This document shows positions 4,803-5,661 of a DNA stretch of 36,349 bases, in pieces. Source of the DNA: a virus (Duplodnaviria; Heunggongvirae; Uroviricota; Caudoviricetes); the IMG/VR virus record IMGVR_UViG_2718217867_000002, positions 1 to 36,349 of that record; one strand, 5' to 3'. The stretch's first letter is position 1. The number at the start of each line of letters is the position of its first letter. The notes beneath the pieces are model-generated. The model saw nothing but the letters and a program-made list of their open reading frames with translations. It made no database searches and was not told the DNA's origin. Made by a program: the position numbers and the translations under genes.

Positions 4803-5661
4803 GCGGATGGTGCAGGCCTGAAATTATGATACTAACAATGAAGGTAAAATGCATTGGCAGTCTGATTGGTCGTAGTGAGGCGGCGGTCAGGATGAAAGCC
4901 CGGGTTAAGGGAATAAGCCTGATTCTGCGGGGTAATTTTCACCAGTCAACAAAATATCCGTAGCGCGATAACGGTCAAAAATCATGGCGCTGACACTTTT
5001 GTGCCACTGGAGATGACTGTACCTAAGTTCAGGGGAGAAGAACACGTCCGGTGGGATGGTCGGGCCAGATTTAAAGGGCAGGTCATGGCTCCAGCCAGTA
5101 CGCTGGCAATGGAGGCTGCCTGGCTGGAAATTGATATGGGAACCACGCCACTCAGGGATTTACTGCCGGTCCAGAGAATAAATTCCTGTTACGGTTACAC
5201 CACTGTGATCTTGCAAGTGCAGGAAAGTAGGTCTACACGGTAACGCGAGTGCGTGTAACTTTTGATGTTATTTCCGTAGAAACACCGGACAAATTTTCGC
5301 TGGCAGGTCATGCTGAAGGTATAATTCTGCAGATTATGGACAATTACGGATATCCGGCAAGAGCCGGAAAAAGCATGCCGCCTCTAATTCTCAGTGGAAG
5401 ATGGACTTGATTATACTCATTGCATTGTCAGAAATAGTTATCCATTAAAGGCTGGCTATTCCAAACAGGATGTTGATTACAAAAATGTAATCAACATGTA
5501 AGGTTTATACTCTTCAATATGCGTATAATTTTCCTTATTTTGTTAACTTTAAATAACAAGCTATGCACGAGGTAAAGTCGGATAAGTTTATCTGGATGTA
5601 ATATATATTATTTGTAGTGTTTATAACTTTATTTCATGATAACCAATAAAAGGAGTTTTTT

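Follow-up and report, generated by a model that had tools for sequence, protein, structure and literature searches.

Introduction

What lies between the replication module and the adhesin gene paa of this prophage, in a stretch (positions 4803-5661) where no convincing gene could be called? The stretch is part of a window of 36,349 nucleotides, by which we mean the whole piece of viral DNA that was analysed (IMG/VR record IMGVR_UViG_2718217867_000002). An initial annotation had offered three possible contents for it: degraded gene remnants, a silenced promoter region for the cargo gene, or an unannotated RNA. The cargo gene, adfO/paa (z2053), and the adjacent hok-like ckf are used as virulence markers of OI-57 (PMC8565820; PMC9729726). 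Our analyses make it very probable that 4803-5661 is a non-functional recombination scar followed by the cargo gene's own control region. The gap in this virulence-gene prophage thus appears to be gene debris rather than a new element, and the value of the finding lies mainly in annotation hygiene.

The prophage and its ORF-poor stretch

Megablast searches identified the window as a Rac-like, ompW-type (OI-57/CP-933O-like) Escherichia coli prophage, with 98.2% identity to 11 deposited PPompW phage records, PPompW being the name for the Rac-like prophage that integrates at ompW and OI-57/CP-933O its name in EDL933. The whole interval from ydaW to paa was matched in 572 of 5,426 complete E. coli genomes, at identities of up to 99.4%. 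Both flanks were as the initial annotation had described them, a replication module on the left and an AcfC-like gene on the right:

3990-4802, + strand: ydaW / DUF1627 gene, an intact 270-aa ORF; left flank and last gene of the replication module
5662-6420, + strand: paa, encoding the AcfC-family adhesin Paa/AdfO, from ATG 5662; right flank

Copies of ydaW in related prophages are annotated as DUF1627 domain-containing protein.

No ORF of at least 90 aa covers 4803-5754 on either strand, and 4803-5661 holds no intact gene, as had been claimed. By the same ORF criterion this gap ranks third in the window, behind 6421-7461 and 9850-10865, so that the description of the stretch as long for a phage genome stands to the extent that it is unusual, although it is not unique within the window. 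For 9850-10865, the second-largest stretch without ORFs of at least 90-100 aa, synteny with relatives suggests that the 231-aa ORF just before it is the Q antiterminator gene; in lambdoid phages the region after Q is the classical PR' site of morons, sRNAs and tRNAs.

The longest plus-strand ORFs in the stretch are the two weak ones already reported, 4718-4963 (GTG start, 81 aa) and 5001-5243 (GTG start, 80 aa). Their supposed lack of recognisable motifs did not hold up, as both are out-of-frame pieces of known genes, and the first, although open from GTG 4718, has a better start at ATG 4799, which gives the 54-aa ORF called by PGAP. The GC content, 51% over the whole window and ~50% ahead of the drop, falls to 25.6% at 5463-5661, and the strongly AT-rich end that had been remarked on has 27.6% GC over its last 250 bp. 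In contrast to a single block of non-coding DNA, sequence comparison resolves 4803-5661 into three parts: half of a phage gene, a fragment of a pixH/papH-type pilin gene, and the upstream region of paa.

The locus is not new to reference genomes. In OI-57/CP-933O/PPompW-type prophages in RefSeq, which carry this locus at 98-99% identity, with the DUF1627 gene and paa likewise on either side of it, PGAP annotates a 54-aa hypothetical CDS (4799-4963) and a 'fimbrial protein' pseudogene (~4968-5501) flagged 'frameshifted; internal stop', examples of the loci being C6P70_RS30280 in CP027388 and A4C50_RS32135 in O157:H7 strain 1130. Unlike the present analysis, PGAP neither names the kind of pilin nor recognises the 54-aa CDS as a truncated phage DNA-binding gene, and in phage records (e.g. 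LC567818) a piece of the scar is still a 'hypothetical protein'. The stretch aligns cleanly with a known decayed gene, which is the outcome that the initial annotation had set against its own proposal, and the claim of novelty therefore falls: the stretch is explained, with its pseudogene already flagged in reference genomes. What is added here is the assignment of the pilin to the pixH/papH type and of the 54-aa ORF to half of a phage HTH gene, the location of the junctions, and the matches to PHROG families.

A phage DNA-binding gene cut short

The left part of the stretch comprises the following features:

4799-4963, + strand: 54-aa ORF; its ATG overlaps the ydaW stop (ATGA) and it ends at an in-frame TAG (4961-4963)
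4838-4973, + strand: DNA homology to the first 45 of the 84 codons of a phage DNA-binding protein gene; the HTH at the C-terminus (~49-77) is gone
4974-4995, no strand: left junction, 22 bp spanned by neither phage-gene nor pixH homology; the PGAP pseudogene starts at ~4968

The 54-aa ORF corresponds to WP_001443694.1, a hypothetical protein in PGAP annotation, and is matched by phrog_30109 and phrog_323. Using the intact 84-aa protein WP_077793295.1 as a tblastn query, 34 of 40 residues (85%) were identical over residues 1-40, at window positions 4838-4957, and the ATG at 4799 adds an upstream extension to the remnant of the HTH gene. In blastn comparisons with two Rac-like prophages that have no paa (L006 and L007), homology stopped at 4970-4973. 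Intact relatives have CAG where the window has TAG at 4961-4963, at which the window copy stops at codon 42. The Pfam HTH matches in the intact protein fall at residues 41-77, the half that is missing from the window. The 84-aa DNA-binding gene follows ydaW in the paa-less prophages, with a DUF977 gene intervening in one of them. By these alignments, 4799-4963 is what is left of a phage HTH DNA-binding gene whose 3' half was cut away at the junction, and the 22 bp that follow (4974-4995) are possibly degenerate coding sequence of the pixH signal peptide. The ORF is frameshifted in strain E2 and deleted in CFSAN004176.

A fragment of a pixH/papH-type pilin gene

Immediately beyond the junction lies the largest component of the scar:

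4996-5462, + strand: pseudogene fragment of a pixH/papH-family minor pilin gene, codons 24-183 of 195

The fragment has 85% DNA identity to intact pixH (ETEC B7A plasmid pEB2; strain CPww7), and tblastn with PixH recovered three segments, residues 24-79, 80-161 and 163-182, in alternating frames. The breaks in frame accompany a 10-nt deletion between 5162 and 5163 and a 5-nt deletion between 5396 and 5397, and a CAG to TAG change at 5228-5230 adds a stop codon. The start codon and codons 1-23, which encode the signal peptide, are absent, and at the other end the last 12-13 codons (...ALRFKLDYE) are missing, with the paa cassette in their place (pixH-paa junction, GGCTGGCTATTCCAAACAGGATGTTGATTAC). 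In pilins of this type the C-terminal beta-strand is needed for chaperone binding and completion of the fold. ORF 5001-5243 is the first frame-segment of the remnant, running on past the 10-nt deletion. The conserved disulfide pair of PapH/PixH-type pilins is not preserved in the window, where Cys58 is replaced by Ser (AGT, 5097-5099), as it is in CP027388, while other copies have TGT; the second Cys is kept.

The family assignment is supported by comparison with PDB sequences, as the stitched translation of the remnant matched PapH (PDB 2J2Z_B) with E = 4e-48 over PapH residues 3-160 of 173, compared with E = 3.5e-80 for intact PixH. Pfam detected no domain in either small ORF or in an initial stitched translation, the Fimbrial model being weak even on intact PixH (PF00419; 32.3 bits at a cut-off of 25.6). 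In the Pix (P-like) chaperone-usher operon, intact pixH comes second among the structural genes, between the gene for the major subunit and the usher gene pixC. The remnant shares codons 24-183 with this gene, but relative to pixH and to PapH, the terminator/anchor subunit of the P pilus, it has no operon around it, no signal peptide and no C-terminal strand, and it carries two frameshifts and a stop. No usher, chaperone or major-subunit gene was found near it; its neighbours are ydaW and paa.

With no start codon, signal peptide or C-terminal strand, and with two frameshifts and a stop, the remnant, judged from its sequence, cannot make a pilin and is a dead fragment. The dN/dS ratio between the remnant and intact pixH was 0.40-0.43, as against 0.11 between two intact pixH genes, and this elevation fits a period of unconstrained evolution. 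The remnant thus appears to be under relaxed selection, and its decay to be continuing in sister strains. The prediction of degraded gene remnants is thereby borne out twice over, by half of an HTH gene (4838-4973) and by a frameshifted, doubly truncated pilin gene (4996-5462), and 4803-5462 can encode neither parental protein.

Both pseudo-ORFs have entered protein family databases. The families phrog_29700 (5001-5243, E = 4e-57) and phrog_30109 (4838-4963, E = 6e-17), whose function is unassigned in PHROG, match them end to end and appear to derive from calls of gene fragments. Some of the 'hypothetical protein' calls in phage records likewise match the pseudo-ORFs and are apparently derived from fragments.

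The upstream region of paa

The remainder of the stretch travels with paa and contains the following:

5463-5661, + strand: native AT-rich upstream region of the paa cassette, 25.6% GC; presumed promoter and 5' UTR
5470-5497, no strand: perfect 12+12 palindrome, ATGTTGATTACA-AAAA-TGTAATCAACAT, on the left border of the paa cassette; candidate site of protein binding
5524-5529, + strand: TATAAT hexamer, invariant in 8 of 8 cassettes; candidate -10 with no recognisable -35

The extent of this region was defined by comparison with at least 30 paa homologues on plasmids, whose flanks are unrelated and in which homology to the window starts at 5458-5476 and ends at ~6483, delimiting a unit of ~1 kb. 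These cassettes have 86-89% identity to the window overall and 75-82% in the upstream part. The upstream part is less conserved than the coding part, yet a comparison of eight divergent cassettes revealed near-invariant blocks within it, namely ATTACAAAAATGTAATCAA, GTAAGGTTTA, the TATAAT hexamer and the ribosome-binding site of paa (AAAGGAG, 5649-5655); the block just upstream of TATAAT is also conserved across the eight. The core of the palindrome, ATTACAAAAATGTAATCAA, is invariant at 18 of 19 positions, one cassette having G for A in the left arm. The perfect 12+12 form was seen in the prophage lineage, and two plasmid cassettes lose homology inside the left arm. When 5,426 E. coli genomes were searched for other sites that might form a regulon with the palindrome, the block turned up at paa loci only. 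Possible roles for the palindrome are those of an operator or of a hotspot for recombination.

The suggestion of a silenced promoter region for the cargo gene survives in part. The region accompanies paa everywhere and has invariant blocks, but it yielded neither a promoter call nor a conserved -35/-10 pair: a consensus promoter scan of 5463-5661 returned nothing convincing and did not call the TATAAT, promoter-like sites were about as frequent as in shuffled sequence (4 found, 3.7 expected), and a relaxed scan of the eight cassettes gave no -35/-10 pair common to all. In EHEC, paa is transcriptionally regulated, with induction in the contents of rumen and rectum (PMC8524897), and such condition-dependent transcription fits a promoter of its own. 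We infer from the conservation pattern that 5463-5661 holds the promoter of paa, possibly an operator, and the 5' UTR including the ribosome-binding site, and that it is presumably the sole functional part of 4803-5661. By analogy with established xenogeneic silencing, the 26% GC of the leader makes it a likely target of H-NS-type silencing. A more specific proposal, tentative and on balance unlikely, is that ATTACAAAAATGTAATCAA followed by GTAAGGTTTA constitutes a dedicated operator, at which a regulator would switch paa on in the ruminant gut, in combination with the -35-less TATAAT 27 bp downstream and against H-NS silencing of the leader. Whichever elements are used, the ~200-bp conserved upstream block represents a minimal region for tests of paa regulation.

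Proposed origin, spread and variation of the scar

The nucleotide search of related prophages that the initial annotation had recommended found an intact 84-aa DNA-binding gene and ead/DUF551-type genes at this position. They occur between ydaW and hok in three sister prophages without paa (L006, L007 and L099), and this layout, together with the junctions, indicates that a foreign segment from ~4974 to ~6519 replaced ~2 kb of ead/DUF551-type early genes. We propose that an ancestral Rac-like ompW-type prophage would have exchanged its ~2-kb ead/nin-like early region, which began midway through the small HTH DNA-binding gene and ended shortly before hok/sok, for this foreign segment of ~1.5 kb. 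On arrival, the segment would have consisted of a pixH/papH-type pilin piece already fused to a self-contained paa cassette, the latter made up of ~200 bp of AT-rich upstream DNA, paa and a terminator. The promoter, possible operator (the palindrome at 5470-5497) and 5' UTR of paa would then be supplied by 5463-5661. With no convincing terminator between ydaW and paa, transcription from the early rightward promoter would probably also run through the whole stretch once the prophage is induced. A mosaic recombination boundary lies near 4770, at the 3' end of ydaW, where homology to phage Rac-SA53 ends (~4771).

Among complete E. coli genomes, 576 records have prophage-type paa (at least 95% identity) and 572 genomes have the full scar, and the lesions were identical in every scar copy inspected. 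The comparisons point to one capture, separate from the plasmid-borne cassettes, after which the module spread together with the prophage. The debris of the scar would accordingly serve as a lineage marker, all prophage-borne paa/adfO copies in E. coli tracing back to that capture. A donor, with a pilin gene and a paa homologue side by side, was not found in plasmids or other species: the plasmids carrying the pixH-paa junction are copies of the same prophage, and the paa homologues of E. albertii, Citrobacter, Edwardsiella, Providencia, Vibrio and others are without a neighbour resembling PixH and lack the upstream region found here.

Variation within the module is low. Across five copies, the segments of 4803-6420 had 1.4-2.9 variable sites per 100 bp, with 1.4 in the pixH remnant and 1.6 in paa, compared with 8.9 plus indels in ydaW, a step in diversity that marks the boundary near 4770. 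That the remnant varies no more than paa counts against decay, but in so young a module the comparison has little power either way. In strain CFSAN004176 (L013; NZ_CP014583.1) a deletion of ~4250-5235 fuses a truncated ydaW to the middle of the pixH remnant, so that the 54-aa ORF is lost along with the remnant's 5' half and paa stays intact. Thus, 4803-5462 is dispensable in at least one natural variant.

Alternative explanations

Could the pilin remnant have been co-opted into the regulation of paa, as an upstream promoter, as curved DNA, or as a nucleation site or spacer for H-NS? Its completeness in 572 of ~576 prophage-type paa copies and the presence within it of a promoter-like site (TTCTCA-18-TATACT, 5388-5417) speak for it. 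Such retention is, however, explained by recent common descent, the copies being 98-99% identical, and promoter-like sites do not exceed the shuffle expectation (4 versus 3.7). In addition, at least 30 plasmid paa cassettes, starting at 5458-5476, are wholly without the remnant, and CFSAN004176 retains an intact paa after losing the remnant's 5' half. Co-option is therefore improbable in our assessment. Functional small proteins from the 54-aa ORF (4799-4963), the 80-aa ORF (5001-5243) or both are suggested by their being called as CDSs by PGAP and phage annotators and by each having its own PHROG family (phrog_30109 and phrog_29700, respectively); the 54-aa ORF is moreover intact in most copies, and its ATGA start is coupled to the ydaW stop, so that a truncated peptide may be weakly expressed from it. 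Yet both ORFs are fragments of longer genes read up to the first lesion, the 54-aa product being without its HTH half and the 80-aa ORF passing into a frameshifted continuation beyond the 10-nt deletion. They are also frameshifted or deleted in sister strains, and neither has a Pfam domain, which together leave this explanation with a very slim chance.

The third content suggested by the initial annotation was an unannotated RNA; it would be a structured or regulatory one, such as an sRNA or a riboswitch-like leader of paa. EHEC prophages are rich in sRNAs (PMC4104026), and the 218 nt preceding paa form more stable folds than shuffled sequences on both strands (z = -2.4 and -3.1). The excess in folding is due to the 12-bp palindrome, which is strand-symmetric, and RNAalifold of four cassettes gave compensatory changes in only 2 of 51 pairs with a covariation term of -0.88 kcal/mol, that is, no covariation in support of a conserved structure. 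The recommended covariance-model scan also went against an RNA: Rfam 15 gave no match in 4803-5661 even at E <= 1, its matches being sok and sub-threshold noise, all outside the stretch. The known EHEC prophage sRNAs described in the papers examined (PMC4104026 among them) map downstream of PR', away from 4803-5661. We thus hold an RNA to be very unlikely. An insertion-sequence or transposon remnant would be in keeping with the plasmid paa cassettes, which often sit among copies of IS1, IS21 and IS66. Its probability is close to nil, as the matches to 4775-5510 are all fimbrial, DNA-binding or DUF1627 genes, none of them annotated as a transposase or mobile element, and no terminal inverted or direct repeats were found flanking the segment.

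Comparison with lambdoid morons and plasmid cassettes

Well-known morons of lambdoid phages are bor and lom of lambda and stx downstream of Q; the moron concept is reportedly due to Hendrix and colleagues. By the features used to recognise morons, the paa cargo was found to be absent from relatives that share its flanks, to deviate in GC content (43.7% in paa) and to be followed by a terminator-like hairpin:

6426-6457, + strand: intrinsic-terminator-like hairpin with T-run, 9 bp including 6 G-C pairs, 5 nt past the paa stop; a pattern-level match

As in lambdoid morons, therefore, the cargo is missing from sister phages with the same flanks, has deviant GC and its own terminator, and is on the same strand within an operon; the invariant TATAAT is a candidate for a promoter of its own. 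It differs from them in that it would have replaced ~2 kb of phage DNA instead of being cleanly inserted between genes, and in having brought along a fragment of a donor gene unrelated to the cargo.

The cassettes on ETEC/STEC plasmids (e.g. pCFS3246-1, pE105-3 and pZ1323HEC0477-2) constitute the same ~1-kb unit, corresponding to 5458/5476-6483 of the window. They share with it the AT-rich upstream region, the palindrome core, the TATAAT, the ribosome-binding site and the terminator, but at their left edge there is no pixH fragment and there are no phage genes. Their flanks vary by plasmid and include IS1/STa, RepFII, glycerol dehydrogenase and others, and their paa homologues are annotated 'substrate-binding domain-containing protein'.

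paa and its downstream side

The paa gene of the window has a nonsense mutation in codon 9 (codon 5686-5688, TTA to TAA by T to A at 5687), inside the signal peptide. The allele was absent both from the 584 complete E. coli genomes that carry paa and from IMG/VR contigs, and the best 96-nt match had 97.9% identity, which corresponds to two private substitutions. Unless the change is a sequencing error, the adhesin gene is probably inactive in the source strain. Positions 5742 and 6180 were listed alongside the nonsense codon.

Homology to the paa cassette ends at ~6483 and the phage backbone returns at ~6520-6570, upstream of hok/sok. In other prophages hokD is preceded by a small phage ORF, and from ~6520 onwards the window matches the 3' end of that ORF. 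Between the paa terminator and hok/sok, at 6542-6567, lies TCCGATATGGGAATTCCCATATCGGA, a perfect palindrome of 26 nt with an EcoRI site in its centre. Directly downstream of paa is a hok/sok type I toxin-antitoxin locus (6612-6914), in which Rfam scored sok (6612-6761) at 103.9 bits and the Hok/Gef ORF extends to 6914. This locus corresponds to 'ckf', which is said always to accompany adfO in OI-57.
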